From an uncultured Clostridia bacterium (lineage in GTDB: Bacteria; Bacillota; Clostridia; Oscillospirales; UMGS1783): a stretch of DNA of 64,000 nucleotides. Positions 41,352 to 56,388 of the stretch are shown in pieces (position 1 is the first letter of the stretch; each line of letters opens with the position of its first letter). The position numbers were made by a program, and so were the translations under genes. The stretch lies in assembly GCA_937991645.1 (NCBI GenBank), contig CALKPL010000037.1:9168-73167 (forward strand), in the 5' to 3' direction. The notes below the pieces were generated by a model, which saw nothing but the letters and a program-made list of their open reading frames with translations, searched no databases and had not been told where the DNA came from.

Positions 41352-41429
41352 CGGGGTGTAGCTCAGTTTGGTATGAGTGCTTGGTTCGGGACCAAGAGGC
41401 CGTGAGTTCGAGTCTCACCACTCCGACCA
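41352..41429 (+). tRNA. tRNA-Pro (anticodon CGG)
   Basis: The cloverleaf folds by hand. Acceptor CGGGGTG/CACTCCG, D stem GCTC/GAGT, and anticodon stem CTTGG/CCAAG with loop TTCGGGA. T arm GTGAG-TTCGAGT-CTCAC, discriminator A, and an encoded CCA. Confidence 0.9.
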
Positions 41430-41434
41430 CGAAA

Positions 41435-41475
41435 TGCGGTAGTCCATGATACAATGGGCTACCGCACTTTTTTAT
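41435..41475 (+). terminator. rho-independent terminator after tRNA-Pro
   Basis: TGCGGTAG..CCAT / ATGG..CTACCGCA stem followed by CTTTTTTATTT. Confidence 0.7.
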
Positions 41476-41773
41476 TTATCTGCCGAGAAAGTCCTTATAT
41501 CAAGCGATTTTCCGAGTGTGGGGGTGCAAAAGTCCTCAATGCTCGGATTTTTCTATTTTACCGGAAGCGAGCTGCTGATTTTTGCTTTGCACCCCCTTAT
41601 GGGAAAAATCAAAAAGTAGATAGGTTTATCAAAAGGTTGCAGAGAAAAATCAAATTGTTCCTTGACATTTATTTGCTACGCTTTTCCTCTTCCCCAGGGA
41701 GAGTCAATGTTCCTGCTGACTTTGATACAATAGAAAAAGCCTTCTCCGGGGTCAAAACCGCCGAAAAGGCATA

Positions 41774-41820
41774 AAACAAGGGCTTTCGAGGTCAAATACT
41801 GACTTCGAAAGCCCTTGTTT
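41774..41820. terminator. long bidirectional hairpin terminating the defence operon
   Basis: 21-bp stem AAACAAGGGCTTTCGAGGTCA / TGACTTCGAAAGCCCTTGTTT with one G-U pair and loop AATAC. T-rich on both sides. Confidence 0.7.
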
Positions 41821-41950
41821 GCTTTATTCAGTTGTGGATTTCTGCCATTCCAAAGCCTGACGGCACCGTAGGGTGTAAGTCTTGCGGTGTATGGATTTTG
41901 GAATAATTAAAAGGTATGGCATAATTAAAAGGTTTAGCGCCTTTTTTCGT

Positions 41951-42136
41951 TTATTCCTTATTGTCGGTGCCCTCTACATAATCGGCCAGGCAAGCCTCCA
42001 GAAGCATTCTTGTGACGTCTGTGTAAGCAAGGATTTTTCCCTGGGCATACATATCATCGTCTTTTGCGTCCTTCAGCTTCGTCATTTCGGTATCGATTTG
42101 AGCCTTGATAAACTTAATAACATCAATTTTTTCCAT
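41951..42136 (-). CDS. 61-aa acidic hypothetical protein, last gene of the defence operon
   Basis: ATG 42136 lies 5 nt after the stop of the 511-aa gene. The GGAGGA RBS sits inside that gene's last codons. No recognisable motif. Confidence 0.5.
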   Translation of the reverse strand: MEKIDVIKFIKAQIDTEMTKLKDAKDDDMYAQGKILAYTDVTRMLLEACLADYVEGTDNKE

Positions 42137-42141
42137 TGCAA

Positions 42142-43677
42142 TTATTCCTCCGGCGGGTCAAAATCTTCATCCGTGCATTTGCGGATAATATGCTTAGTGC
42201 GGTCAAGCGGCAGAGGCACGTCCTCCTCTGCGAAATACTCCACCTTCACTACCGCTGCTGCGGAGTGGTGGTTATCCTTGCCCACGGGTACAATCACATA
42301 ATCGCCAACGGAAATATCGTCCTCATCGGCAATGTAATAATAACTTTTGTAGCCTTCGTCAAATTCCACGCTACAGTAGATATAATCGGTTCTGCGGCGC
42401 TTGACCTTCTCATAGACCGCAGGATTGAGTATTTCCCCCATTCCGTAGAAACGCATAAACTGCCATACGGATTCAGCAAAATCGCTCCAGAGCTCCGGAA
42501 GAGCCTTCTTGTCATATGTTCCTTGGATGACACGCTGCGGTCCTTTCTTGAAGTCCACTGTGATCGTGTAATCTATGGTTTCAAGCGGATTGTCTACCGC
42601 ATCATCCGGGTTGCCCTCAATCTCGCCAAACAGGTCATCGGCATCAATATCATTGAGCAGGCCTTCAACGCCACCCTGGACATAGTATTTTCTGGACACA
42701 GCACAACCGCTGCCGATGTTCTGAATATGCTCCAAGGTCTCACTTTTACGGTCAAGCACCAATCTCTCGGTGTAGTCCCAAGTCACATATTCAACGGTTT
42801 CGGAGATCGGCTGCTTCGGCTTCATTTTGGTAATGCGGTGATAATCGATGGTGACGCGGTCAACTCTGTCTGGCTTGTTATTGCCGTCAAACACATAAAG
42901 GTCATCCATTTCGACTGCTTCTCGCACCATATCCGACAGGTCAACGCCATCCACTTCAAAATCAGCAATCAACGAGCCACGGTACTTATAAATATCTCCC
43001 TCGGTGTTGGTGATCTCCATCTCCCATTCACCGATATCGGTAGCAAAAACCTCAATGTACTCAGTGCTGAAATATCGTGCTATGCTGTTCAGCACTTTTG
43101 TGGCGCTTTCCTTTTCAATTTTATAAATTTTGCTCCTGGACTTTTCATGTCCATCAAAGCCAGAGCCAAAGTTGTATGCTGAGAACCATATGCGCCCATC
43201 GGCGTTGATGGTGATATGCTGTTCAACCTCGTCATCTGGTTCAGGCGGTGGGCCATAGCAGATATTATTGGAAACGATGCGCACCTTCTGCGGAGTGCCT
43301 TTAAACCGCTTCATGTGACATTCTGCTAATTCGCCCAGGCGGGATAGAGCCATCGTAAACCACGCACGGTTCTTCAGCTCCAAAATTTCCTCACCAGAAT
43401 ATGCCCAATGATTGAAATACCGCCATCGGGAGTAAATAGCCGATCCGAGCAAAGGAATATCAGTTATCTCCCCGATGATGCGTTCCAGTGCCTCAAAATC
43501 GTTTGCAGCTTTGCCGTACTTCTCAGAAAAGGCATGACCGCAGTCCATTACGAACCCAAGTGCCTCACAGTCATCAGCCATATAATGGTCTACCAGTTCA
43601 ATGTAGGTGGTTTTCTTATTTCTGAATTTGTCATACCACTTGACTGCAAATTCGTGGATTTGCTTCATGTCCGCCAC
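42142..43677 (-). CDS. 511-aa hypothetical protein, no recognisable domain
   Basis: Long ORF whose codon usage matches its neighbours. GTG start 7 nt after GGGAGGTG. No Walker, HEXXH or nuclease motifs and no TM helices were seen by eye. Confidence 0.7.
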   Translation of the reverse strand: MADMKQIHEFAVKWYDKFRNKKTTYIELVDHYMADDCEALGFVMDCGHAFSEKYGKAANDFEALERIIGEITDIPLLGSAIYSRWRYFNHWAYSGEEILELKNRAWFTMALSRLGELAECHMKRFKGTPQKVRIVSNNICYGPPPEPDDEVEQHITINADGRIWFSAYNFGSGFDGHEKSRSKIYKIEKESATKVLNSIARYFSTEYIEVFATDIGEWEMEITNTEGDIYKYRGSLIADFEVDGVDLSDMVREAVEMDDLYVFDGNNKPDRVDRVTIDYHRITKMKPKQPISETVEYVTWDYTERLVLDRKSETLEHIQNIGSGCAVSRKYYVQGGVEGLLNDIDADDLFGEIEGNPDDAVDNPLETIDYTITVDFKKGPQRVIQGTYDKKALPELWSDFAESVWQFMRFYGMGEILNPAVYEKVKRRRTDYIYCSVEFDEGYKSYYYIADEDDISVGDYVIVPVGKDNHHSAAAVVKVEYFAEEDVPLPLDRTKHIIRKCTDEDFDPPEE

Positions 43678-43720
43678 TGCAGTACACCTCCCATCATTTT
43701 ATAAAGTTGACCGTTCTTTT

Positions 43721-45034
43721 TTAACAGAATGCGCTCATAAACTCTTGTTCCGAAACTTTCATCATTGAGACAAATCCAGCATAATCAGTAGCGTCCATGG
43801 GTATTTTCAATCCGTGCTTGGTTATGCTGATATCTTCCCGTGGGATAACATTCGCCTCATAGGTAGAGCCGCGATTCATTCGCAATCTCAGACCCTCGGA
43901 GTTTTCTGCTTCGGGATAGAGATAATAACCCGTTTGAGCATCGAAGCGGAACATATAGGCAAGTACCTGCAGATAGTCCCGGTTGCCGATATTATCGATT
44001 GGTTTATATTTTGCATCAGCAATCACTCGCTTTTCGCTGTTACGGCTGATGAAATCAGGGTAAATAAGACCCACATTTCCTTCGAAGAGTCTCTGTGCGC
44101 CTTTTCCGCCTTTATTCATTGGGTGGTAGAACACGTCATCAATGAGAGAATTGATGTACTCCTCCCAAAGCCATGCACCGTCAAACAGGATGCCGTATAT
44201 TTGTCTTGTTCCTGTACCGATTTGGTGCTTTTGGTGCCGCAGAATAAGCAGGCACAGTCTCTGCAATGCATGGTACTCTCGGTAATACGCATGGCGGACG
44301 GTATTCTTTTTGTTCTGTTCAATGATTTTCTGCCTGTTATACGGCTCATATCCCGGAGTCGCATCTATAACGAGTTTTACCTCGTCTTTCACTTTGGTAA
44401 GAAGTTTATTTCCGTAAGGCTTTCTTTTGATAAACTCTATGGTATGCCGCACCAGCTCCATCAGACTATTATCGTAGGAAAACTCTCTCTGGCTGTATGC
44501 AACATTTCCTACAAATGGGGTATTCTCCTCGATATGTCTTGCGACATCAATCGTGCCTTTTACATTTCCATCATTGTACCTACGGCGGATATATTTTTTG
44601 AACAACCCCTTCCGCATAGCTGCCTTGAGGTAATACGGAAACAGAAACAGCAGAAAATTGAACAGCCGATTGTCTTGATTGGCATCGGAGTTCAAATCTA
44701 CGATGTTTGGAAAGTCCAGGACTTTATCTAAAAGATACTGGAAAAAGTAATCCTCACCCTCTCCGCAAAAACGGGACGCGATCACAAGCCGCTCATCACC
44801 ATAGCCGAGAAAACCCATCACATTGCCAGAACGAAAGGTGTCATTGATGCTTTGGAGGATCATCTGATCTTGGGTAATATCCTCTGCATCTTTTACGGTT
44901 TCTGGAAATACGAATACACCTTCACGCTCAAGCTGTTCCAACGTTTTATCTGCAATTTTACCTGCCAGCTTCGCTACTTGAGAAAAGGCATCTTTTTTCT
45001 GTTGGGAGTTATCCTTGATCCTGAGTAGCTTCAT
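43721..45034 (-). CDS. mcrC: McrC-like type IV restriction endonuclease subunit
   Basis: PD-(D/E)xK signature LIYPDFISRNSEKRVIADAKYK. Immediately downstream of mcrB and overlapping it. Start is ambiguous (45034, 45040 or 45079). Confidence 0.85.
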   Translation of the reverse strand: MKLLRIKDNSQQKKDAFSQVAKLAGKIADKTLEQLEREGVFVFPETVKDAEDITQDQMILQSINDTFRSGNVMGFLGYGDERLVIASRFCGEGEDYFFQYLLDKVLDFPNIVDLNSDANQDNRLFNFLLFLFPYYLKAAMRKGLFKKYIRRRYNDGNVKGTIDVARHIEENTPFVGNVAYSQREFSYDNSLMELVRHTIEFIKRKPYGNKLLTKVKDEVKLVIDATPGYEPYNRQKIIEQNKKNTVRHAYYREYHALQRLCLLILRHQKHQIGTGTRQIYGILFDGAWLWEEYINSLIDDVFYHPMNKGGKGAQRLFEGNVGLIYPDFISRNSEKRVIADAKYKPIDNIGNRDYLQVLAYMFRFDAQTGYYLYPEAENSEGLRLRMNRGSTYEANVIPREDISITKHGLKIPMDATDYAGFVSMMKVSEQEFMSAFC

Positions 45035-47105
45035 GTACATCACCTCTGGACTGTCGCTGATAGCCATATGCCTTTGCAAACCGTTTCATAATCCCTTCCT
45101 CATCGTACATACCCTGAATGTATTCCTGGAGGAGCGGTTGCAGATAATCCGTCCAAAGCTGGTCAAAGTCCAGTGTTTTCAGCTTCAGGAAGTAAGAAGC
45201 ACCGATTTGATAATTCTCATTCAAATCCTCAACGGCAGCAATTTCCTTGTTAAGGGCAGCCATTCTTCTGATTGCTTCAGCCTCCAACTCCTCGTTTTCC
45301 AGCAAGGCCAGCATCTCAAGGCGTTCGTCTGCCCGAAGCTCCACAAAGCGGAAACGACGGCGCATAGCAAAATCGAAGCTATCCACAGAACGGTCAATAT
45401 CATTCATCGTGCCGATGATATAGACGTTTTCGGGAATGTAGAACTTTTCATCCGGGTTGGGGTGCAGATTGGAATACTGCGTAGATATCTCACCGGATCT
45501 TCCACGATAACCAGGGTCGATGGCAAAGAACAGTTCACCGAAGATTTTAGATATTTCACCACGGTTAATCTCATCGATGATGAAAATGAATTTTTTCAAT
45601 TCGGTCTGTTTTGCATGAATCTTGGAACCGGTAGCTTTTCTCGCCTTGATGGCTTTGTAGATAGCGAAGTCGTAGGAGTATGCCTGCGTTGCGAAGGACT
45701 TTCCGAAGAAGGACGTGATGTCCTTGATTTTCTCGAACCGAAGACCGGACTCCAACATTCTCCGAACCTCATCAAGATTTAGTGCGAGTTTGTTAACCGT
45801 TGCATTGCCAGGGATAGAGATATTAATGTGGCTGTCATCTACGCTTACGATGGTAAATTCATTGCCATTGATGGTTTTGAAGGAATCAACGCCCAATTCC
45901 AGGCTGGCGAAAAATTCTGCCATTGCTTCCTGAACTGAGAGTTCCTTTTCGACCGTTTCTTTGGATTTCTGTGAATCCTCGTAGTTCTTTCTGGCGCGAG
46001 TAACAAACTTTTTGAAAATGCCGTCCTGCAGTTCAAAACCCATAGTACCGTCATCGTTGACCCTCGGTCTCAAACCTTCAACAAAATCAGAGTAATCGTA
46101 GCTCGGATGGAACTGGACGAATTCCACCTGTCTCTTCTGCTCATCTGTCAGCAGGGTGTAATCGTCAAAATATCCGTTGCTGATAATATCCGCAGCGATT
46201 TCCTTTGCAAGGTAAGACTTGCCAGTACCCGGAGCGCCTCTGAAGATCAGATTTTTAGATTCAATCAGCATAGAGGAGAACGGATTCCTGTATCCTTTGA
46301 ACTGCTGAACCAATTCCTCTTGGGCAGCGGCTTCTGCCTCCTCGACAACAGTTTCTTTTTCATCTTTTTCTCGGTATGTCAGTACAAACTGGTCTCCCGG
46401 TTCACCGAACCGCTTCAAGCATTCCTGAACGAAACTAATTGTGGAGAAGATATTCCAACAGTAAATGACGAACTGACGGCCGTTGTCATAACCGTAGGTC
46501 ATGTATTCTATGGTCTTGCGGTGCTTTTTGTATTCATCGACACTTGCAAAGATGCCGCAAATCATCTCACTGTCCGGGTTGTATTTGCATACAGGAAAAC
46601 TCTCCTTATCCTCAACAGACAAAGATGCAATCTGCTTTTCAAAAACCTGGCAGGCGATGCGAGGCAGGGTCTGATTGGAATTTCTTCTCTCACCCTTGCT
46701 GTAGGCGCGCTTGATCACCTCGCCAGTTGCCTTTTTGAAGGAGACATCAAGGGGCTTATAGTTGTCACCTAGGCTGATATTATCCATCGTGAACCGCTCG
46801 TCTGTAGATACCACACTTTCGGCGGTGATGGACAGTTCGAACTTTTCCTGCTGCTTTGTCTCAATAGTAAAGCCCTGGCCTTCCAGAAAGCTTTTTGCTT
46901 CTACGGCATTAAAGCCGTCCGTAGAAATATTTGTTCCGTTTGCCAAATAGTCAGCAACAGCCACTACATATTTCGGTGGATACCGCTTTCCGTCATCGGT
47001 TACAAGTTCGTATTTTGTGCTTTGATTATGAAAAGGGACACCATTCTCATCGATGTATTTTAAGGCATCCATGACGTATTCCTTTTTGAATTTTGGTATA
47101 GCCAT
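45009..47105 (-). CDS. mcrB: McrB-like AAA+ GTPase with about 290 aa of N-terminal putative DNA-recognition region
   Basis: Walker A FRGAPGTGKSYLAKEIA, Walker B FIFIIDEINRGEISKIFGELF, and the McrB signature IIGTMNDIDRS. The N-terminus contains GKRYPPKYVVAVA. Confidence 0.9.
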   Translation of the reverse strand: MAIPKFKKEYVMDALKYIDENGVPFHNQSTKYELVTDDGKRYPPKYVVAVADYLANGTNISTDGFNAVEAKSFLEGQGFTIETKQQEKFELSITAESVVSTDERFTMDNISLGDNYKPLDVSFKKATGEVIKRAYSKGERRNSNQTLPRIACQVFEKQIASLSVEDKESFPVCKYNPDSEMICGIFASVDEYKKHRKTIEYMTYGYDNGRQFVIYCWNIFSTISFVQECLKRFGEPGDQFVLTYREKDEKETVVEEAEAAAQEELVQQFKGYRNPFSSMLIESKNLIFRGAPGTGKSYLAKEIAADIISNGYFDDYTLLTDEQKRQVEFVQFHPSYDYSDFVEGLRPRVNDDGTMGFELQDGIFKKFVTRARKNYEDSQKSKETVEKELSVQEAMAEFFASLELGVDSFKTINGNEFTIVSVDDSHINISIPGNATVNKLALNLDEVRRMLESGLRFEKIKDITSFFGKSFATQAYSYDFAIYKAIKARKATGSKIHAKQTELKKFIFIIDEINRGEISKIFGELFFAIDPGYRGRSGEISTQYSNLHPNPDEKFYIPENVYIIGTMNDIDRSVDSFDFAMRRRFRFVELRADERLEMLALLENEELEAEAIRRMAALNKEIAAVEDLNENYQIGASYFLKLKTLDFDQLWTDYLQPLLQEYIQGMYDEEGIMKRFAKAYGYQRQSRGDVHEATQDQG

Positions 47106-47132
47106 ACTGATCCTCCAATATTATTTTCATTT

Positions 47133-48635
47133 TTACAGCCTTTGCTTTGTGCCGAGAGGGGGAACGCCAATCTCGGTTAAAAACGCATTGCAGGTTTCAA
47201 TGTCCTGCTGATAAAAACCTGTGAACAGGTACTTATAAGCCTCTTGTTCTTTGTCGCCATCAACAAAGGTCATTCCACCGAGCCTCAACACCTCTTGCAT
47301 CTCTTGTAGATCCAATCCCAAACCAACTCCCATTGCTATCAGCGGGCGCATCGTAAATTTGTGCGTTTCGCCCTGTACGCGGGAGAAGTTCATTTTGTCC
47401 AACCCCGTTTTGCTTTCAAATGTATACTCGTACCAGTTCTCTTCGGCCATGCGTTTTTTCATCCATGCTGCGGGAGTAGTAGCAGTGGCCTGTGCGCGCT
47501 TTAGTTTTTTCTCAAAATCCTTCGCCTTATTGAATAGTTCCGTATTCTGCGTATTCGCATCATAGGCGGATTCTGTGTTAAAAACACTATCAGATCGGAA
47601 CATCATTTGAGAGGCTCCGTGCATCAAGCTGTCAGGAATCAGCTTGATAGAGAAATCAAGTGTACATTCAGCAAGATGCTCTTTTGCATAAGGCGTCATT
47701 GATTTGACGCCATTTCCAGCATCAAACAAATAACGGTCATCATTCAGAACGAAATATCCCTCGGAAAAGCAGAATACGCCTGTATCTAATGTCGCACGTA
47801 ACAAATCATTTTCACGATACAGCTTAAACGCATCGAGCGGTGAAATGGGGCGTTGATGCCGTTTCGCTTGCGTCGCCTTACGATGCTGAATTTGACTCGC
47901 AGGAGCGTTGGATTCACCCGCACAATATGCCTCAGCTTCACCATATCCCAATTCATACATTCGTATGGCAGCTGACTGTCGGGACACTTCAAAAAAATCT
48001 GCTACATTGTCGATTACATATTCAGTTACGATGCTACGGTCTGCGTTTGGATTATCTGCAAGAAGCACCTGGTAAATATGGTCGACCTTTTTCTTGAATG
48101 CGGTTCGTGGCATGAGTATTTTGGGTGCAATTGTTTTTGCCTGCCACTCCATTTTATCAATATCAGACCACTGTCCACCGATCAAGCTCCCGGTAGTTGA
48201 AATTCCTCTGTTACAGCGGAATGCAAACTCTGTCCCATTTTCATGGTTTCGCTTGTAATTAAAGTAATTCCGATGCCGCCACCAATGGAAGCATTCATGA
48301 GCCAAAGTATTATTGAACCGTCCGATATTCATGATATCTGCATCAACGAAAATCGAAGGTTGTGACACCTCATATCCGATGGTTTCTTCGGCAGACCAGT
48401 CATACACTTCAATGATGCCCTTCGTAAATGCGATGGCACCTTGAACACTACCATCGAATGACAAATACTCCGTATCAATGATTTCCAGAGACATAAGCCT
48501 TGTGGCAATATCCCGGATCGGTATGGGTCTGGGATTGTCTATGGCATCAGCGCATTCGTATTTTGTCAGAAATGCCTCGGCTTCTTTTTCATAATCAGCC
48601 ACATAATGCATAAATGGGTTTGCAGCCTTTGCCAT
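47133..48635 (-). CDS. ImmA/IrrE-type (Peptidase_M78/DUF955) zinc metallopeptidase with a long uncharacterised C-terminal region
   Basis: HEXXH motif in NNTLAHECFHWWRH. About 350 further residues end in an Xre-HTH-like segment (RPLIAMGVGLGLDLQEMQEVLRLGGMTF). ATG 48635 follows AGGAGG, 18 nt after the hsdR stop. Confidence 0.75.
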   Translation of the reverse strand: MAKAANPFMHYVADYEKEAEAFLTKYECADAIDNPRPIPIRDIATRLMSLEIIDTEYLSFDGSVQGAIAFTKGIIEVYDWSAEETIGYEVSQPSIFVDADIMNIGRFNNTLAHECFHWWRHRNYFNYKRNHENGTEFAFRCNRGISTTGSLIGGQWSDIDKMEWQAKTIAPKILMPRTAFKKKVDHIYQVLLADNPNADRSIVTEYVIDNVADFFEVSRQSAAIRMYELGYGEAEAYCAGESNAPASQIQHRKATQAKRHQRPISPLDAFKLYRENDLLRATLDTGVFCFSEGYFVLNDDRYLFDAGNGVKSMTPYAKEHLAECTLDFSIKLIPDSLMHGASQMMFRSDSVFNTESAYDANTQNTELFNKAKDFEKKLKRAQATATTPAAWMKKRMAEENWYEYTFESKTGLDKMNFSRVQGETHKFTMRPLIAMGVGLGLDLQEMQEVLRLGGMTFVDGDKEQEAYKYLFTGFYQQDIETCNAFLTEIGVPPLGTKQRL

Positions 48636-48653
48636 AGACAGCCTCCTAACCAA

Positions 48654-51650
48654 TTAGTCTGTTTGCGTTCCTTCGCGCAGGATTCGATAGATTTCTGTCA
48701 TAAAGACATTTGCAAATTTCGCACGAATTTCCTCGTTATTGAGGAGTAGCGTATAGAAATCCGCATTCTGGTCATAACCTTCAACCAATGCGTCCTGGAC
48801 ACAGTCGTCATAGGTGAACTTGAACTCGTTGAGGGTGTTGTTTTTTGCACTCTTTTCAAGACGCTCTTTGAGTGCAGCGTTCTTCAAAAGTAGGTCACGA
48901 ATCTGCATGGCGGCTTTCGTAGTGAAATCCGGCTCGTAGTCCTTATCGTACAGGGCGTTAACCTCATCGATAATCTGGGAGAGGAGCTTTTTCTGTTCCT
49001 CCTCAAGACTTGCAGGCTTCGGTTTCTTGATTTTCACTTCAGGCTTGGCTTCGATTTCCTCGCCCTGGTGCTTTTCCAGCTGCTTCTGTCTGAAATCGCT
49101 GACGGTAATTTTATCAGCAATATCAAAGTTGTTTCCACCACCACCGGGGTTCAATTCCTTAATCAAATAAGAAAGGAAATTGTATCGCTTATGGAATTCG
49201 AGGTTTTCATAGGCGGTAGCCTGGATAAGGAAACAATAGCCTTTCAGGAATCGGCGGATGGTAATCTTGATCTCCATCTGCTCCAATTCGGGGCGTTTGG
49301 TAATTTTCTTCAAAGCCCCATCCAATAACGACCACATACGCTGCTTGTCCCGTGCTGTGCGGTTATCCTTGTAGAGGTATGTATTGAATTCATCAACATC
49401 GTCCGCATCAAGGAAGTCATACGCATCAATTTCACGATCCATGTCACGAATATCGGACGGAGAAATTGTTTCAAAAAGGATGGTGTCTTTGTAATACGGC
49501 TCAAATGCCGCTTTGATATCATCGTAGCTGTTTTTAAAGTCCAACACAAAGGTAGTCTTATCGTAAGGCGGACAAATTCTGTTCAGTCGAGAGAGGGTCT
49601 GGACGGCCTGAACTCCACGCAGGCGCTTGTCCACATACATTGCCACCAGTCTCGGCTGGTCAAAGCCAGTCTGATACTTATCTGCAACGATAAGCACTTG
49701 ATAACAACTGCGGTCAAACTCGTAACGCAGGTCTTCCTCTTTGAAACCGTTCATGCCGGTTTCAGTGTATTCCTTGTCGTCCAGTTTGACCTTGCCAGAG
49801 AATGCCACCAGAGCCTGAATGCCCGTATAGCCACGCGCCTGAATATACCGTTCAAATTCCTGGCGGTATTTTACAGCAGCCGGGCGAGAAGAAGTGATAA
49901 CCATAGCCTTTGCCTTACCACCAAGGCACCCGGCCACATTTGCTCTGAAATGCTCAATGATGATTTCGACCTTCTGTGCGATGTTGGTATCATGCAGGTC
50001 GATAAAGCGAGCCATCTTACGCTTTGCGGCGATAGACTGGAGTTCCGGGTCATCCTGGATTGCCTTATTGATATGGCAGTAAGTTTTCCAGGTCACATAG
50101 TTGTCCAAAACATTAAGGATATAGCCCTCCTCAATGGCTTGCTTCATAGAATACAGATCGAAGGATTCCTTCTTACCTTCAGCGTTCAGAGTGCCGAAAA
50201 GCTGAAGGGTATCCGGCTTCGGTGTAGCAGTAAAGGCAATCATAGAAACATTGCTCTGCTTGCCACTCTTCTGGATTTCCTCAAGCATCTTGTCTTCTTC
50301 AGTCTTTTCCTCCTCGTCCTCCTCATTGGCGAGGACATTGGTTACGGACTGCATATAGACACCCTCAGTAGAAGAATGTGCCTCGTCAATCAGTACAGCA
50401 AACTTCTTGCCCTTAAGGTTTCCGAGCAGATTGTTGTTGAGAATGTAATAGAATTTATGAATGGTGGTAACAACGATCTTAGTGTTGCCGCCGAGTGCGA
50501 TAGCCAGGTCCTCGGAATCGCACCTATCATCCATAACCTTGACCTGTCCGCTTTTGTGCTCGATGCCGAGAATGGCCTCTTGCAGCTGACGGTCAACAAT
50601 GATACGGTCAGTGATAATCAGCACCGTATCAAAAATATTTTCATTGGCGGCATCGTGAACCGTCGCGAGAATGTGAGCAAGCCAGGAAATGGTTTCGGTC
50701 TTGCCGCTGCCCGCAGAATGTTCAATAAGGTAATTGCAGGAGGTGTGGTTCTCGATAACATCGTTCATAACCCGCTCAACAGCACGAAGCTGATGGAAAC
50801 GTGGGAAAATGAGCACCTTGGACTTTTTGATTTTGCCGGTATCAGCATCCTTGCGCTCTTTCTTTTTGATATAGATGAAACGCTCGATGAGGAACAGGAT
50901 TTTATCCTTCGTCCAGATGTTCTCCCACATATAGGAGACGTTCACGCCGTTCTGATTGTGGGGATTTCCCTTGCCGAAGTTTTCACCAATGTTGAACGGA
51001 TTGAAGAAGGTATCGGGGCCCTTCAGTTCCGTGGTGAAATACACTTCATTCAGGTCCATGGCAAACGCAGCAAATACGCCAACCCTGCTCTTGAAAAGGC
51101 GGGTGGAAGGATCGCGCTCATTCTTGTACTGCTTAATGGCGTCCTCGTAGCTTTGACCGGAGGTGTTGCATTTCAGTTCAACTGTGAAGATAGCCAAGCC
51201 ATTCAGAAAAATAACGAGGTCAATGCGTTCGTCAGCCTTGTGATATACCTCTTCCATTACGGAGAAGATATTTTTTCGGTAGTTCGCAACAGCCTGGGTG
51301 TTGATGGTGCTGTCCGGCTTGCGATACATCAGCCGAAGGGTAACACCATTATCGAACTCTACGCCGTGCTTGATAACATCGATCAGGCCACGGCTTTCCT
51401 TGTTGATTTCCGAGTTGATGTAATTAATGACCGTATCGTTGGTGCGGTCTTTATACATACGGCGCAGACGCTCCATTTCATCGTGCTGCGTATCCTCCAG
51501 AAACTCAAGCAGGACTTCGGTATCCATTGCCAACCCAGGCTTATAGGCTGTGTTGGGACGGATACGGAATTTGTTATCCTCTTCCAAACGCTCCAGAATC
51601 AACTTTTGGAAATCTTCTTTTTCTCTCAGCTGGTCTGCTCTGATAGGCAT
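48654..51650 (-). CDS. hsdR: type I restriction enzyme R subunit
   Basis: 998 aa. Helicase motif I HSAGSGKTETISW, motif II VLIDEAHSS, and later motifs VAFSGK and QTGFDQP. Confidence 0.95.
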   Translation of the reverse strand: MPIRADQLREKEDFQKLILERLEEDNKFRIRPNTAYKPGLAMDTEVLLEFLEDTQHDEMERLRRMYKDRTNDTVINYINSEINKESRGLIDVIKHGVEFDNGVTLRLMYRKPDSTINTQAVANYRKNIFSVMEEVYHKADERIDLVIFLNGLAIFTVELKCNTSGQSYEDAIKQYKNERDPSTRLFKSRVGVFAAFAMDLNEVYFTTELKGPDTFFNPFNIGENFGKGNPHNQNGVNVSYMWENIWTKDKILFLIERFIYIKKKERKDADTGKIKKSKVLIFPRFHQLRAVERVMNDVIENHTSCNYLIEHSAGSGKTETISWLAHILATVHDAANENIFDTVLIITDRIIVDRQLQEAILGIEHKSGQVKVMDDRCDSEDLAIALGGNTKIVVTTIHKFYYILNNNLLGNLKGKKFAVLIDEAHSSTEGVYMQSVTNVLANEEDEEEKTEEDKMLEEIQKSGKQSNVSMIAFTATPKPDTLQLFGTLNAEGKKESFDLYSMKQAIEEGYILNVLDNYVTWKTYCHINKAIQDDPELQSIAAKRKMARFIDLHDTNIAQKVEIIIEHFRANVAGCLGGKAKAMVITSSRPAAVKYRQEFERYIQARGYTGIQALVAFSGKVKLDDKEYTETGMNGFKEEDLRYEFDRSCYQVLIVADKYQTGFDQPRLVAMYVDKRLRGVQAVQTLSRLNRICPPYDKTTFVLDFKNSYDDIKAAFEPYYKDTILFETISPSDIRDMDREIDAYDFLDADDVDEFNTYLYKDNRTARDKQRMWSLLDGALKKITKRPELEQMEIKITIRRFLKGYCFLIQATAYENLEFHKRYNFLSYLIKELNPGGGGNNFDIADKITVSDFRQKQLEKHQGEEIEAKPEVKIKKPKPASLEEEQKKLLSQIIDEVNALYDKDYEPDFTTKAAMQIRDLLLKNAALKERLEKSAKNNTLNEFKFTYDDCVQDALVEGYDQNADFYTLLLNNEEIRAKFANVFMTEIYRILREGTQTD

Positions 51651-51651
51651 A

Positions 51652-52983
51652 TTACCGAACCTCCTTTACTCGTTTTTTGCCTGTGACATACTCAAATATT
51701 ACGGCAGCCATATGATTTTGCATGGTAAGCAGCTGACGCTCCTTTTCCGCAATAGTTGCATCAATAAGTGCCGTTTTATAGTCCAGCTCTGCTACTATAG
51801 CATCTTGCTCTTCTAACGGAGGAACAGAGATATTCTGTTTCTTCAAAATGCTGAACGGAGGGATATTTTTTATAGCACTACCGTTGCTATATTTTTCATT
51901 CATATATTCCAGTGCAACATCGAATAAGTAAATAAAATAAGATTTATTGAACCCATCTTTTATTCTTACCCTCATCAATGCCTGATTGATAATACCCGGC
52001 TCAATGTTGTCTGGTAGAACATAACACTTACCAATAGTGCCTGCGCAACTCACTATTATGTCGCCAGGAGCAACAGAAAAGTCCTTAAGTCCTCTATAAT
52101 CTTCGTAGGATAGATAATACCACCCCAGCGAAGCATCGCCCTGAATTGCATTCTTTTGCTCATAGACCTTAAAGGTGTTTTCACCCTTTTCTATAAACAT
52201 ATCGACAGTTACAGCACTTCCAAAGGGACCTTTTTTGTAAGTTGCGATATCCTGCATACGAAGGATTTCCCAATGTTCGGGAGTCGCTCCGCACCACTCT
52301 ATATGGCTATTCTTTTTCTGCACATCGGGGTTCAAACCGTGTGTAACAACTTCTGAAATATAAGTTTTTTTATATTTTTTCAGCAATGCAAGTTGTGCTT
52401 CCAGTTCAGTGATGATAGCCTGCAACTTTCCGCAATGAACATCCAAATAGTCTGCAATGGCTTCCTGTTCGGCATAATCTGGAAACGCATACAAAAATTC
52501 CGCAAAATCTCCTTGGTACAGATGCACAATTGTACTGTTGCCAGCATTTTTGTAGTTAAACCAGTTCCAAAACTCATCGGATTTAATCACCCAATAGAGA
52601 AACCGCTGGCTATATCCTTCGATAGGTACAATACGAAGAACGCCGCTATTAAGTGATGTTTCACCCGGCATATTCGTTACAATAGCAACCTTACCAATAG
52701 TACCGTCTTTGGTAATCAACAGATCGCCTTCCTGAATTTGAATATCCGTAGCTTCTTCCCAACGCTTCATAGGAACATGAACACAATTTTCCCAATCAAT
52801 ACCACCGTCAGCAAAATCAACTCCGGTGATAAGATATGCGCCCTCGTCCTGGTACTCTTCGGATGTCAATCCTTGCCATCCAATGCGTCCCTTCAACGTT
52901 GCCATATATTTAATTCGCTTGGTGTTCCAGGCAGTTGGAATTTCTCCAATCCACTGGATGCCAGTCTGTCTCATCTCTTCCAT
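51652..52983 (-). CDS. hsdS: type I R-M specificity subunit
   Basis: 443 aa with two target-recognition domains separated by coiled-coil conserved regions (LEAQLALLKKYKKTYISEV ... EKERQLLTMQNHMAAVIFEYVTG). Confidence 0.9.
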   Translation of the reverse strand: MEEMRQTGIQWIGEIPTAWNTKRIKYMATLKGRIGWQGLTSEEYQDEGAYLITGVDFADGGIDWENCVHVPMKRWEEATDIQIQEGDLLITKDGTIGKVAIVTNMPGETSLNSGVLRIVPIEGYSQRFLYWVIKSDEFWNWFNYKNAGNSTIVHLYQGDFAEFLYAFPDYAEQEAIADYLDVHCGKLQAIITELEAQLALLKKYKKTYISEVVTHGLNPDVQKKNSHIEWCGATPEHWEILRMQDIATYKKGPFGSAVTVDMFIEKGENTFKVYEQKNAIQGDASLGWYYLSYEDYRGLKDFSVAPGDIIVSCAGTIGKCYVLPDNIEPGIINQALMRVRIKDGFNKSYFIYLFDVALEYMNEKYSNGSAIKNIPPFSILKKQNISVPPLEEQDAIVAELDYKTALIDATIAEKERQLLTMQNHMAAVIFEYVTGKKRVKEVR

Positions 52984-55145
52984 TATTCTGCCCCTTTCTG
53001 CAAGGCAGCAATTTTTGCAGTAAGCGAAGACTCCAATTCCATGAATTGCGCCAGCAGATCATCAGCCTTTTCGGGCTCATGGTACACATAGAAATACCTG
53101 GTGAACGGGAATTCCGCACCCAATTTCTCTTTATTGGTAGCACTCTCCGCTTTGCTTTCGTCAAAGTCATAGAAGTAAATCGCATCCGGAATATGCGGAT
53201 ACACTTCAGCATCCATATAAGCCTTCTCGTCCTGATTGAGGCGAATAATTTCCGTGTCTTTTGTTGTCGGGTCGATAATCACACGGCCTTTTCTGTCCTT
53301 CTGGACAACAGCGGTCTTGTCAATAAACGACAGTTCCATGGCAATGCCGTTGAGACGAGAATCCGACATACCCTCAATACCTGCGAGAGCCTTTTTCAGT
53401 ACTGCTACGAATTTGGAAAAATCATCGTATTCCTTGTCAGACTCCTGCGCCTTCAACGCCTCAATTACAGCAGCAGTAAAGGTGCGACCCTTAATCTGCT
53501 TCTGATATGCCTTTTCGTCAGTAGCGTCACGAGGATCGGTCTGCTCCAATTCCTCAAATTTAGCTTCATTGAAAATGTTGGTATTGGCGGTGAAATAAGC
53601 GCTGGTACGAAGTGCCTCAATAGAAGCCGCATTGATAACACCACGGCGCTGTAAGGGCTGGTACACAGACCACTCCTTATACAGGAATTCCTCTCGGTCA
53701 AAAATCTTGCTCTCAATAACGCATTCGTGCTTGCGCTTTTCGCACCACTGAGTCTTTCTACCAGGTGCAAAATCCGCATAGATCTCAGTGATAAGGGTAA
53801 TCTGCTCCTTGGAGATTTCTCTACGCTTTTTGCCAAGAGAACGCTTCAGAGGAGTCCACATATCGGTTGCATCGATAAGCTGAACCTTGCCCTTGCGTTC
53901 TTTACGCTTGCCCTTGGACAAAATGAACGCATAGATTGCAATATCGGTATTGTAGAACAACTGAGAAGGCAGACCGATAATGGCTTCTATAAGATCATTC
54001 TCAAGCAGGTATCTTCTAATCTGGCTTTCACCACTTGTGGTATTGCCGGAAAACAGAGGAGAACCATTTGTGATAATAGCAGCTCTACCAACGCCTTTCT
54101 GCATTTTTGCAACGGCGTGCTGCATAAACAGCAATTGCATATCACCGGTTGTAGGCAATCCCGCCGGGAACCTGCCATTATTGCCTTTCTTGTATTCTTT
54201 GCGCACCGCTTTTTCAACACCATCGCCGGCATCTTTGCCGCCCCAAGCCTCACCAAAAGGTGGGTTGGCAATGACAAAACGCATGGAGGTATCTTCAAAG
54301 CAGTCCTCCTTCATGGTGTCAGCAAAGCGGATGTTTTCTGCAGTCTGGTTCTTAATCAGCATATCCGCAAGGCAGATAGCATGGGATTCAGGGCTGTTCT
54401 CCTGTCCGAACAGGCGCACATTGGCGTCCGGGTTCATACGCACGATGAAATCGTGTGCGGTAGAAAGCATACCGCCAGTACCGCAGGCCATGTCCAATAC
54501 GGTGATTTCTCTGCCTTCGGAGAAAATATCACTGCAACCTTCAGCAAGCAGAATGCTGGTGAGGAGGCGGATAACTTCACGAGGGGTGTAGTGATCGCCC
54601 GCAGACGCATTTTCAGAAAAGCGGCGGATGATTTCCTCGAACATATAGCCCATCTTGACATTATCGACTTTTTCGGGGTCGAGTTCGAGTTCAGAGAACT
54701 TTTTGACAACACCCAACAGTCGGTTATTTTTGTCGAGATTTTTGATTTCTTCCTTAAACTTCAGTTCTTCAAAAATTGCTTGGACATTCGGAGAGAAGGA
54801 CTCAATGTAAAAAGTCAGATTCTCTACGATGGCAGGTGCTTCGGTAAGCAGTTTCTTCAAATCAAATTCACAGGTATTGTAGAACTGATAGCCAGATTTT
54901 TTGCACAGCAACTGTGCAGGAGCCGCGGGGTTCTTCTTGAATGCGTCAACCACAGCCTTCTTTTTAGGCGCAAGAGCACACTCCAACCGGCGCAGGATAA
55001 TCATGGGAATGATGACATCCTTGTACTTGTCCGGCTTATAAGGACCACGCAGCGTATTTGCAATGGAGAATACCATGGCGATTTCTTTGGACGCATCTAT
55101 CGTTTTGTCGTCCATCATTACTTCGGTGATTTTTGTCTGTGCCAT
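52983..55145 (-). CDS. hsdM: type I R-M N6-adenine DNA methyltransferase subunit (long form, 720 aa)
   Basis: HsdM N-domain, SAM motif LDMACGTGGML and catalytic motif FVIANPPFG. About 230 aa of C-terminal extension. Confidence 0.95.
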   Translation of the reverse strand: MAQTKITEVMMDDKTIDASKEIAMVFSIANTLRGPYKPDKYKDVIIPMIILRRLECALAPKKKAVVDAFKKNPAAPAQLLCKKSGYQFYNTCEFDLKKLLTEAPAIVENLTFYIESFSPNVQAIFEELKFKEEIKNLDKNNRLLGVVKKFSELELDPEKVDNVKMGYMFEEIIRRFSENASAGDHYTPREVIRLLTSILLAEGCSDIFSEGREITVLDMACGTGGMLSTAHDFIVRMNPDANVRLFGQENSPESHAICLADMLIKNQTAENIRFADTMKEDCFEDTSMRFVIANPPFGEAWGGKDAGDGVEKAVRKEYKKGNNGRFPAGLPTTGDMQLLFMQHAVAKMQKGVGRAAIITNGSPLFSGNTTSGESQIRRYLLENDLIEAIIGLPSQLFYNTDIAIYAFILSKGKRKERKGKVQLIDATDMWTPLKRSLGKKRREISKEQITLITEIYADFAPGRKTQWCEKRKHECVIESKIFDREEFLYKEWSVYQPLQRRGVINAASIEALRTSAYFTANTNIFNEAKFEELEQTDPRDATDEKAYQKQIKGRTFTAAVIEALKAQESDKEYDDFSKFVAVLKKALAGIEGMSDSRLNGIAMELSFIDKTAVVQKDRKGRVIIDPTTKDTEIIRLNQDEKAYMDAEVYPHIPDAIYFYDFDESKAESATNKEKLGAEFPFTRYFYVYHEPEKADDLLAQFMELESSLTAKIAALQKGAE

Positions 55146-55162
55146 TACATCGTTCCTCCAAA

Positions 55163-55372
55163 TTAATATTCATTCAGGTCGATACCGGCCTTCAGCAAAC
55201 GCTCATAGCGGTCATTGGAAATGATAACCGCCATAGGCTTACCGTTTTTCAAGACAAAACCAGCCTTATCTTCGGTAGATATTGTCGTTATAATCTTTGA
55301 TGCCTGCCCACGCAGGAAGTCTGACATATTATAATGCTCCATCGGAGTGATACTTTTCTTTACCTCAGCCAT
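55163..55372 (-). CDS. Phd/YefM-like antitoxin-fold protein, first gene of the operon, no toxin partner
   Basis: 69 aa: MSDFLRGQASKIITTIS...GFVLKNGKPMAVIISNDRYERL, matching the Phd/YefM N-terminal pattern. hsdM starts 17 nt downstream. Confidence 0.6.
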   Translation of the reverse strand: MAEVKKSITPMEHYNMSDFLRGQASKIITTISTEDKAGFVLKNGKPMAVIISNDRYERLLKAGIDLNEY

Positions 55373-55404
55373 GATTTGCCTCCTTGTAATTCATGCTATT
55401 TTAC

Positions 55405-55433
55405 ATCATAGCACAAAGTAATTACTTTTTCAA
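55405..55433 (-). promoter_or_regulatory. near-consensus sigma-A promoter of the defence operon
   Basis: Minus strand: TTGAAA (55433-55428), 17-nt spacer, extended -10 TGCTATGAT (-10 hexamer at 55410-55405). Confidence 0.6.
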
Positions 55434-55495
55434 TGACTTTTGTGTAACTTTTTGTTTGTACAATTCAGGCTACCTCAACAAACACAAAAAAGTTA

Positions 55496-55512
55496 GTAAC
55501 TCACCGAGTTAC
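55496..55512. promoter_or_regulatory. perfect 7-3-7 palindrome GTAACTC-ACC-GAGTTAC
   Basis: Read directly from the sequence. Other GTAAC(T) copies lie at about 55445, 55604 and 55662. Confidence 0.4.
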
Positions 55513-55538
55513 GATTAGAGGCACATATTAACCTTCAT

Positions 55539-55594
55539 CCCTGTCCACAGCCTTTCCAAAACATCGGAAAGGTACTGTTGGCAGGGATTTTTTG
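55539..55594 (+). terminator. compound hairpin with T-tract, no upstream plus-strand gene
   Basis: CCCTG...CCTTTCC-AAAACATC-GGAAAGG...CAGGG followed by ATTTTTTG. Confidence 0.5.
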
Positions 55595-55802
55595 CTTATT
55601 CACTGTAACTCGCCAAGATTCGGGTTTTCAGACATTGTTAGATATAATTTTGGTATCGAAGGTAACTCCTTCGAAATAAATTTTACTCCGCTTTGTGAGT
55701 GGCCATTAACGAAGCGGTGGATACATACGGAACCCGGGACGGATTCTCCGTCAGCCATCCGATGTACCACCGTTGATTCGTCATGCCTTCTCACGAGCGT
55801 CG

Positions 55803-55838
55803 AAGCCGGTGTGTCATCTGATGCACCGGCTTTTGTTG
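55803..55838 (+). terminator. terminator/attenuator 40 nt upstream of the sigma-like gene
   Basis: AAGCCGGTG-12 nt-CACCGGCTT followed by TTGTTG. The 150 nt before it contain several further hairpins. Confidence 0.6.
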
Positions 55839-55878
55839 TATCTGCCGCCTCCCTTCCCAAAGCGGGAAAGGACAAGCA

Positions 55879-56388
55879 ATGCAAAAGAATGACAATCAGC
55901 ACTACATCTATCTGCGTTCCACCCGTGAGCGCATCCCCTGCACAGAGCAGGAGTTCCACGATTATTACCGCGACATTGATGCCTTCCGCAAAAAGCAACA
56001 GCGCCACGGGCGCTGCGTGTGTCCCGTCGCCAAGCGACTGGACTGTGACATGGACTGCGTGACTTGCCCCTTCAGCAGAGCCGGAGACTCCCTCTCCTTG
56101 GATTACACCGCTACAAACGACGAGGGTGAAGAAAGACCCTGGCTTGACGATATACCAGATGCATTCGCAGAGGTCGATGTGAAAGTTGAGGAAGCTGAGA
56201 TGCTCGATGCGCTGCATCTTCTTCTATCAACCCTCGCACCGGAGGAACTGGAAATTTGTAAAACCATCATGGTCGATCTTTCCGAGCGTGCTGCTGCCGC
56301 ATCACTAAACATCTCCCGAAAGGCCTTTACGTGCCGCAGAGATAAGGTTTTGAATCATTTGAAAAATTCTCTAAAAAATTATCTCTGA
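55879..56388 (+). CDS. sigma-70 region-4-like HTH protein with an N-terminal Cys cluster (phage/ICE early regulator type)
   Basis: 169 aa. CVCPVAKRLDCDMDCVTCPF, then LLLSTLAPEELEICKTIMVDLSERAAAASLNISRKAFTCRRDKVLNHLK. Confidence 0.6.
   Translation: MQKNDNQHYIYLRSTRERIPCTEQEFHDYYRDIDAFRKKQQRHGRCVCPVAKRLDCDMDCVTCPFSRAGDSLSLDYTATNDEGEERPWLDDIPDAFAEVDVKVEEAEMLDALHLLLSTLAPEELEICKTIMVDLSERAAAASLNISRKAFTCRRDKVLNHLKNSLKNYL

Follow-up and report, generated by a model that had tools for sequence, protein, structure and literature searches.

Between the defense genes and the replication genes of a prophage in an uncultured Clostridia bacterium lies a non-coding region of 506 bp (positions 55373-55878 of the stretch analyzed here; Table 1), which we read as two control modules placed one behind the other: a block of DNA operators, followed by a structured leader RNA that would keep the early regulator gene behind it off by default. 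To this two-module reading as a whole we assign a probability of about 0.6. The stretch, called the window below, comprises 64,000 nucleotides of contig CALKPL010000037.1 (positions 9,168 to 73,167 of the forward strand; GenBank assembly GCA_937991645.1). The prophage is of the Candidatus (Ca.) Heliusvirales type, and a search of the literature found no description of how these phages control entry into replication. An earlier description of the region, made from the letters alone and referred to here as the sequence-only reading, had seen a non-coding control hub with a structured, terminator-containing leader between a promoter and a sigma-like gene that opens the replication module, and this outline agrees with what we found; every feature on its list was located where it had been placed, and most of them recur in relatives.

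Relatives of the region were gathered by protein-guided and DNA-pattern searches, their loci being numbered with the prefix L, and six distinct versions falling into two clades were compared (the window, L002, L109, L118, L004 and L129). Protein look-ups for more leader variants showed that most relatives carry another leader, the DUF2800 RNA of Rfam (RF02960), and yielded L129 as the sole new variant; extra DNA patterns run on viral contigs returned known relatives only, plus one chance match (L012). Identical DNA occurs in one Lachnospiraceae metagenome-assembled genome and one IMG/VR contig, and blastn with the region gave no match among annotated phages and plasmids.

The predicted start of the leader is marked by a TATAAT box that had already been pointed out from the sequence and that is conserved in position: in three unrelated upstream contexts a -10 box (TATAAT, TAAAAT or TATTAT) stands 6 nt before the conserved leader start. 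The 225-nt leader folds with -102.6 kcal/mol (z = -8.95; none of 200 shuffles was as good), and its homologue in L004 reaches z = -7.4. From 5′ to 3′ the fold consists of a terminal hairpin (P0), a long irregular rod, a terminator hairpin (T2; -23 kcal/mol, z = -5.9), and a compound hairpin that pairs both the Shine-Dalgarno (SD) sequence and the start codon of the regulator gene. The last of these is nearly invariant over all variants, and its energy taken alone is modest (-14.3 kcal/mol, z = -1.95). The leader hairpins listed in the sequence-only reading were thus recovered, except that CCGCTT/AAGCGG, a 9-bp hairpin that is the first to form in prefix folds, is displaced by the rod in the full fold; this transient early hairpin is the rod's sole competitor. 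A leader peptide was considered and rejected, as the two small open reading frames (ORFs) available, MYHR* (55762) and a 12-codon ORF (55783), have no SD sequence and are not conserved, the latter differing in length or frame in L004 and L118.

Table 1. Features of the control region and its surroundings, by position in the window; regulatory roles are predictions.
Feature	Position	Strand	Description
tRNA-Pro gene	41352-41429		prophage begins from there
Two large, mostly unassigned ORFs of the defense island	42142-43677 and 47133-48653	minus
Gene of 69-aa Phd/YefM-like protein	55163-55372	minus	first gene of the type I restriction-modification operon
Sigma-A-type promoter of the Phd-like/hsdMSR operon	55433 to 55405	minus	-35 TTGAAA, 17-nt spacer, TG, -10 TATGAT
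OP, putative operator	55415-55428		perfect 14-bp palindrome AAAGTAATTACTTT, in spacer of minus-strand promoter
Three phased ACTTTTT/G repeats	55424-55453 (starts 55424, 55436, 55447)	plus	12- and 11-bp spacing
-10-like hexamer TACAAT	55459-55464	plus	TATAAT in L118, TAAAAT in L004
O1, putative operator	55496-55512		perfect 7-3-7 palindrome GTAACTCACCGAGTTAC, GTAACTC-N3-GAGTTAC
T1, predicted intrinsic terminator	55537-55594	plus	compound hairpin 55537-55588 + U6, between O1 and O2
O2, putative operator	55605-55622		degenerate O1 copy GTAACTCGCCAAGATTCG, overlaps -35 region of leader promoter
Leader promoter, -10 box	55643-55648	plus	TATAAT; predicted transcription start near 55655
Structured 5′ leader RNA cassette	55655-55885	plus	225-nt leader
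P0	55656-55674	plus	5′-terminal hairpin UCGAAGG/CCUUCGA
Irregular rod	55689-55799	plus	111 nt
Invariant helix of the rod	55714-55731 with 55758-55773	plus	16 bp, two bulged A
Variable apical hairpin of the rod	55738-55752	plus
T2, predicted terminator	55802-55845	plus	14-bp hairpin 55802-55833 + U-rich tail UUUUGUUGUAU
SD/AUG compound hairpin	55836-55885	plus	SD GGGAAAGGA (55864-55872) with CCUUCCC; AUG (55879) with T2 tail UUGUAU
Controlled gene	55879-56388	plus	169-aa protein, PHROG 13787

A covariance model built on the window leader (R1) guided the alignment of the six distinct leaders. In this alignment 95.7% of the cells are paired, against 38-45% when the partners are slid, and six pairs have changed on both sides, a value matched by one of 500 shuffles. 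In P0 the compensation proceeds in steps, A-U to G.U to G-C and A-U to A.C to G-C, across the window, L002, L004 and L129. In the L004 clade the apical GACGGA/UCCGUC is swapped for ACAACC/GGUUGU, and the lower U/UU internal loop of the rod is a paired AU/AU in L004. The changes in the T2 stem (U.G to C-G, G.U to A-U, U-A to U.G) are all one-sided and keep the pairing. The upper helix of the rod, 16 bp with two bulged A, shows zero variation, which suggests that it is recognized for its sequence on top of its pairing.

Three relatives (L002, L108 and L116) resemble the window from 55655 onward only. Six others (L124, L098, L008, L095, L127 and L009) are 77-89.5% identical to it from 55883-55891 on and unrelated before, and all six have RF02960 in the leader slot, at 126-150 bits; there the motif ends about 45 nt before the ATG and is followed by an SD-containing terminator hairpin whose U5-6 run stands directly before the AUG. 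To judge from these comparisons, the leader forms a cassette that is self-contained and exchanged horizontally. A further recombination junction, at window position 55902, was seen in L118, L119 and L120, where the window-type leader and the first 8 codons run into the gene of another protein, of 185 aa, whose C-terminus is likewise sigma-region-4-like (e.g. L120 11237-11794).

The leader is most likely a non-homologous functional counterpart of DUF2800 RNA and its terminator. The Rfam scan proposed along with the sequence-only reading assigned it to no family: RF02960 gave no match at 55100-56100 (E ≤ 10) or in the whole window at its gathering threshold (60.2 bits), and nothing relevant came from the other Rfam families over the same two ranges, at E ≤ 10 and at gathering score respectively. 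Conversely, R1 had no match on DUF2800-type loci or on other leader classes and finds this leader type only. RF02960, a candidate cis-regulatory RNA of Firmicutes, shares its genomic context with the window leader, which stands before the same 169-aa gene and about 1 kb ahead of DUF2800; both occupy the identical slot before the sigma-region-4-like gene that heads the DUF2800/Enc34-SSB/PolA module, and in both a terminator hairpin involving the SD sequence comes after a structured domain of about 150-200 nt. Their architectures differ. In the window leader the one long rod, the terminator and the SD/AUG hairpin are distinct elements; RF02960 is built of two domains, in which the internal loops are large and conserved, and its SD sequence lies within the terminator. 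The DUF2800 RNA is attributed to the 2017 survey of Weinberg et al. (NAR 45:10811, PMC5737381), although the main text there does not give the motif by name.

When 77 loci of the gene family were compared (76 fetched plus the window), they fell into six unrelated upstream classes, all with a non-coding leader of more than 240 nt; a strong hairpin with a U-tail is present in four of the six, the SD sequence is paired in nearly all, and just one class is known to Rfam. No 7-9-mer is common to three or more of the classes. Besides the two types described, four more unrelated long leaders stand before homologues of the gene, c1 (e.g. L038), c2 (e.g. L018, L021 and L030), c3 (e.g. L043) and c5 (e.g. 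L055), none with an Rfam match at E ≤ 0.1, and these are candidate new structured RNAs; c2 and c5 hold strong terminators, that of c5 including the SD sequence. In L030 the gene has the Rfam gut-2 RNA (RF02990; positions 1310-1357, 50.8 bits) about 1.1 kb upstream. Termination and SD occlusion being common to the cassettes, we interpret the window leader as most likely a default-off attenuator combined with a translation lock, which by analogy would work as DUF2800 RNA does without being a member of that family.

The DNA block to the left of the leader (55373-55654) is organized around two promoters. The minus-strand promoter of the defense operon, already located in the sequence-only reading, was confirmed; 32 nt separate it from the ATG (55372) of the gene for a 69-aa protein, and it is kept in all relatives with this upstream module. 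Its spacer contains OP, which is unique in the window when up to 2 mismatches are allowed (0.06 expected) and is conserved in relatives, with one arm mutated in L129; OP is likely to be an autoregulatory operator. The three ACTTTTT(G) repeats are there as described, the first overlapping the -35 and the spacer and the other two lying farther upstream. L109 and L118, relatives at 87-89%, retain them, and the L004 clade does not; the repeats may be phased T-tracts or an UP-like element, or else extra half-sites. The imperfect inverted repeat noted with them was found as well, as repeats I3-I5. A conserved -10-like hexamer beyond them (55459-55464) might, speculatively, mark a plus-strand promoter with T1 as the end of its transcript; it has no good -35 and was not called in the promoter scan.

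O1, the perfect 7-3-7 palindrome of the sequence-only reading, was exact, its arms being invariant in five of the six variants while the center varies (ACC, GGC, GCC or GAC). A second, degenerate copy, O2, reads GTAACTnnnCnAGATTCG in the alignment of relatives, the two 17-bp operators forming a 78% direct repeat. In all six variants O1 and O2 are 108-110 bp apart and O2 precedes the -10 box by 38 bp, which places its center near -42 of the leader promoter. The related motif GTAACT is concentrated here, since of its copies in the 64-kb window all four on the plus strand and one of the eight on the minus strand fall within these 506 bp; the fourth plus-strand copy (55662), in the loop of the first leader hairpin, was rejected as an operator because it is not conserved, every relative having GTAGCT. 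No credible extra copies of O1 or OP were found elsewhere in the window. In L002, L108 and L116, which have the same leader behind a wholly different upstream module with other defense genes, the O1/O2 operators are absent, and the operators therefore travel with the 69-aa gene and the restriction-modification (R-M) module.

Between the two operators lies T1, the compound hairpin with a T-tract, for which no plus-strand gene had been seen upstream. T1 folds with -29.7 kcal/mol (z = -6.2), and the fold is retained despite different sequence in L118 and L004 (-29.9 kcal/mol in L004); the T-run is absent on the minus-strand side. Terminator-like sites number 7, against 1.3 ± 1.3 expected by chance. 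The only plus-strand ORF upstream (55393-55518) was rejected as a gene ended by T1, as its ATG is lost in L118. Because the prophage lies directly downstream of a tRNA gene, and because similar terminators stand before the leader promoter in other upstream contexts, T1 is likely to be an insulator that shields the early promoter from plus-strand read-through.

A block on foreign read-through at T1 would also suit a processive antitermination RNA like put of phage HK022, by which a modified polymerase, on its own transcripts only, would pass T2 and later terminators. The sequence-only reading had entertained such processive antitermination, and a structured RNA directly after the early promoter and before a terminator is where one would look for it. 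The put element, however, consists of two short stem-loops, which the rod does not resemble, and the leader has no similarity to Rfam families; nor would such a function explain the sequestration of the SD sequence and AUG, or a terminator inside the cassette in four of six classes. With no positive evidence for it, we consider this explanation very improbable.

The sequence-only reading took the region for a lysis/lysogeny-type switch whose repressor gene is missing. As put, this is not supported: there is no CI/Cro-type gene, but the adjacent 69-aa Phd/YefM-like protein is a candidate operator-binder. Signals for the Phd/YefM fold are weak yet concordant over four libraries, namely Pfam PF02604 (E = 1.8e-4; 21.6 bits, cutoff 29.8), TIGR01552 (E = 0.009; 15.3 bits, cutoff 20.8), a PHROG antitoxin (9.4e-5), and YefM/Phd-like chains of the PDB (E = 0.16-0.56). 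Directly downstream of the gene there is no cognate toxin gene of the Doc/YoeB type, hsdM being next. Since the gene is inherited together with the GTAACTC operators, its product is the most likely binder of OP, O1 and O2. The arrangement recalls lambdoid switch regions in its divergent promoters, its repeated, phased palindromic operators and the operator over the early -35. It differs from them in lacking a CI/Cro helix-turn-helix (HTH) pair, the adjacent small gene being instead Phd/YefM-like and heading an R-M operon, in having an intrinsic terminator between the operators and a second lock at the RNA level, and in placing the right-hand gene behind a 225-nt leader.

Put together, the first module would act at the DNA level, the 69-aa protein binding the operators and O2, at the -35 of the early promoter, serving for either repression or activation, with T1 as the barrier to transcription from upstream. 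In the second module (55655-55885) the TATAAT promoter would transcribe the 5′ leader RNA, transcription would stop at T2 by default, and any message reading through would be poorly translated, its ribosome-binding site and start codon both being paired. The sigma-region-4-like early regulator would then be off, and the replication genes behind it would be off by polarity. Release would require an input acting in trans, with the invariant bulged helix of the rod recognized by a protein or an RNA. The comparison shows the sequence features and their conservation, the predicted fold, the edges of the cassette and its replacement by RF02960; where transcription starts and ends, in which direction regulation works and which factors take part are predictions from the sequence. 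In its parts the second module resembles the terminator-based attenuators and riboswitch platforms of Firmicutes: ahead of the regulated gene come a putative promoter, a structured leader, a predicted intrinsic terminator and a ribosome-binding site masked by pairing; T2 provides the GC-rich hairpin and U-tract between promoter and start codon. The window leader departs from them in having no competing antiterminator fold, no leader peptide, and no T-box or other Rfam signature.

Several findings weigh against this two-module scheme. The leader promoter has a poor -35 and went uncalled in the promoter scan, the U-tract of T2 is interrupted (UUUUGUUGU; UCUUGUUGU in L109), and the assignment of the 69-aa protein to Phd/YefM stays under the curated thresholds. 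The comparative alignment that had been suggested as a check for covariation did find the hairpins conserved and the changes pair-preserving, but the variants are only six, in two clades, and most pairs never vary; covariation is therefore thin, and the modest support it gives to the leader is real but shallow. No competitive antiterminator was found, T2 staying in every constrained fold (hairpin A enforced, rod 5′ arm blocked), and the best duplex of the rod 3′ arm with the T2 5′ arm reaches only -16.6 kcal/mol. Nor is a candidate partner factor encoded within 3.5 kb downstream, a stretch that is shared with relatives having the other leader. If no antiterminator fold can compete thermodynamically, release should need a factor in trans, and the invariance of the bulged helix favors a protein or RNA partner over a small ligand.

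Finally, the minus strand of the leader folds nearly as well as the plus strand (-99.8 kcal/mol), and energy alone does not discriminate between them. This near equality counts in favor of a reading in which the inverted repeats act as DNA rather than RNA, whether they form an origin or a cruciform, serve for single-strand initiation or bind proteins; the element does precede a replication module with a D5-type primase-helicase, and the strict invariance of the 16-bp arms would fit recognition of DNA by a protein. Against this, the boundaries of the element are a promoter -10 box and a start codon, the SD sequence and the AUG take part in the pairing, and the equivalent slot in relatives is filled by a curated RNA family. 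The plus strand is moreover favored by the U-rich tails, those of T1 and T2 being on that strand only, by the G.U pairs, at least 9 plus-strand G.U columns being A.C mismatches on the opposite strand, and by the -10 box that precedes the leader start in three different upstream contexts. A role purely as DNA thus seems extremely improbable.

It could also be that the leader is a riboswitch that binds a metabolite, the alternative cassettes, DUF2800 RNA included, being different aptamer classes for one signal that would tie the early genes to host physiology. Several riboswitch ligands are known to have unrelated RNA classes before the same gene, which would speak for this, as would the succession of a conserved structured domain, a terminator and an SD-sequestering platform. 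In the DUF2800 type, in addition, the invariant segment CGAAACGGAG of RF02960 is a perfect 10-nt complement of CUCCGUUUCG, the 5′ arm of the downstream terminator/SD hairpin (L098 2799-3000 and other loci); this suggests a switching sequence. Both segments are almost invariant and so give no covariation signal. What is most conserved in the window leader, however, is a regular 16-bp helix with two bulged A rather than a junction of several helices in which unpaired nucleotides are conserved, and a competitive alternative fold was not found. Six classes for one gene family in one phage order would also be unusual, and no ligand can be proposed. We regard a riboswitch as rather improbable.

Another possibility, which the sequence-only reading had raised in the form of a stand-alone small RNA, is that the terminated leader is itself the product. 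T2 would terminate the leader, and a stable RNA of about 185-190 nt (55655 to about 55840), constitutively made and acting in trans, would then, for example, confer immunity in the way of the CI RNA of satellite phage P4, the six cassettes being immunity types. The P4 CI RNA, which derives from the leader of the replication operon, and the put RNA of HK022 are both early-operon leader RNAs that govern termination, and the replication module of the window also has a primase-helicase of the D5/P4-alpha type. There is no CI/Cro-type gene beside the early operon in the window or its relatives, where the upstream slot holds variable defense cargo only; as in stable small RNAs, a protective hairpin stands at the 5′ side of the leader and a terminator hairpin at the 3′ side; the arms of the rod and of T2 look alike on reading of the sequence; and the sharp-edged diversification of the cassettes resembles the mosaicism of immunity regions. 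On the other side, the leader has no sequence relation to the P4 and HK022 RNAs, and no credible second copy of a rod arm or T2 sequence and no complementary target copies like seqA and seqC were found in the window. The pairing of the SD sequence and AUG, and a cassette boundary that reaches the first codons, point to a role in cis. We consider this explanation unlikely. A wider version combines it with the lock in cis: in Ca. Heliusvirales prophages the early operon would be silent mainly through RNA, without a CI-type repressor, and the six cassettes, constitutively transcribed and self-terminated, would each unite a cis lock with a trans immunity RNA, giving hetero-immune types that are swapped by recombination between transcription start and start codon. 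This version we hold to be rather improbable, a little more so than the immunity RNA taken by itself.

The controlled gene encodes a protein with a Cys-rich N-terminal domain (invariant C46, C48, C56, C60 and C63) and a C-terminal four-helix HTH, 64% identical to its homologue in phage NatCom_9287, which is classified in Ca. Heliusvirales. Its structure model has a mean pLDDT (predicted local distance difference test score) of 71.5, and the top Foldseek matches are sigma factors, at weak E-values from 6e-3. NCBIfam gave weak matches to the C-terminal part of the SigB/F/G families, and a homologue with 62% identity (P0046) is listed as a sigma-70 family factor by one database source. In Pfam the protein had no match, the thresholds for sigma-70 region 2 and region 4 not being reached. 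Given this weak structural, NCBIfam and homologue-name evidence, it is fair to say that the 'sigma-like' label holds for region 4 only. The Cys-rich half has no family assignment, and the protein may be a zinc-binding domain joined to a sigma region-4-like HTH. An antisense terminator-like hairpin with a T-run (55998-56016, minus strand), in the 5′ part of the gene over the conserved KKQQRHGRC codons, is probably a by-product of coding.

The first 41 kb of the window carry host genes of the Clostridia bacterium (SpoIIIAA, DXP synthase, RecN and TyrRS, among positions 1-41 kb). The tRNA-Pro gene is followed by a defense island on the minus strand with McrBC, an AAA_5 (McrB-like) ATPase, an IrrE-domain protein and type I hsdR/S/M, the 69-aa gene being the head of the hsdM/S/R operon; the control region adjoins it, and the plus-strand early module follows with the 169-aa HTH protein, DUF2800, an Enc34-type SSB, PolA and a D5-type primase-helicase. 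Two large proteins of the island stand out, a 511-aa minus-strand ORF without a Pfam or NCBIfam match and a 506-aa ORF with an IrrE/M78 peptidase domain only. The slot between the tRNA-Pro end of the prophage and the leader (window 41352-55372) is a variable hotspot of defense genes. Where the window has the cargo just listed, the relatives L095, L098, L124, L127 and L002 hold, among them, HamA with a helicase (Hachiman-like), a Dcm methylase with AAA_5, AAA_23 with MC2 and CTD6, a plus-strand remnant of a type I R-M system, and LlaJI. In three contexts (the window, L098 and L095) a small DNA-binding gene leads the cargo, of the Phd-like, HTH_26 or HTH_17 kind. In L123 (about 9922-9925) a deletion joins window positions of about 48913 and 54037, by which hsdR, hsdS and part of hsdM are lost and the control region is kept.

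Ca. Heliusvirales are a widespread lineage of temperate gut phages whose core genes include DUF2800, DUF2815 and PolA, and according to the same report (PMC9226167) temperate phages of this group (Heliusviridae) occur in over 90% of people. Certain sublineages are notable for their activity as prophages (bioRxiv 10.64898/2026.05.11.724261). For these phages, the present comparison shows that the gene led by the orphan motif DUF2800 RNA is the sigma-region-4-like early gene and not DUF2800, and that the motif can be replaced, exactly to the cassette boundaries, by an unrelated and so far unannotated structured RNA, with at least four more unannotated leader classes in the same slot. Swaps of the cassettes, together with mutation of the invariant helix, would offer a handle on the function of DUF2800 RNA and on the induction logic of very common gut phages.

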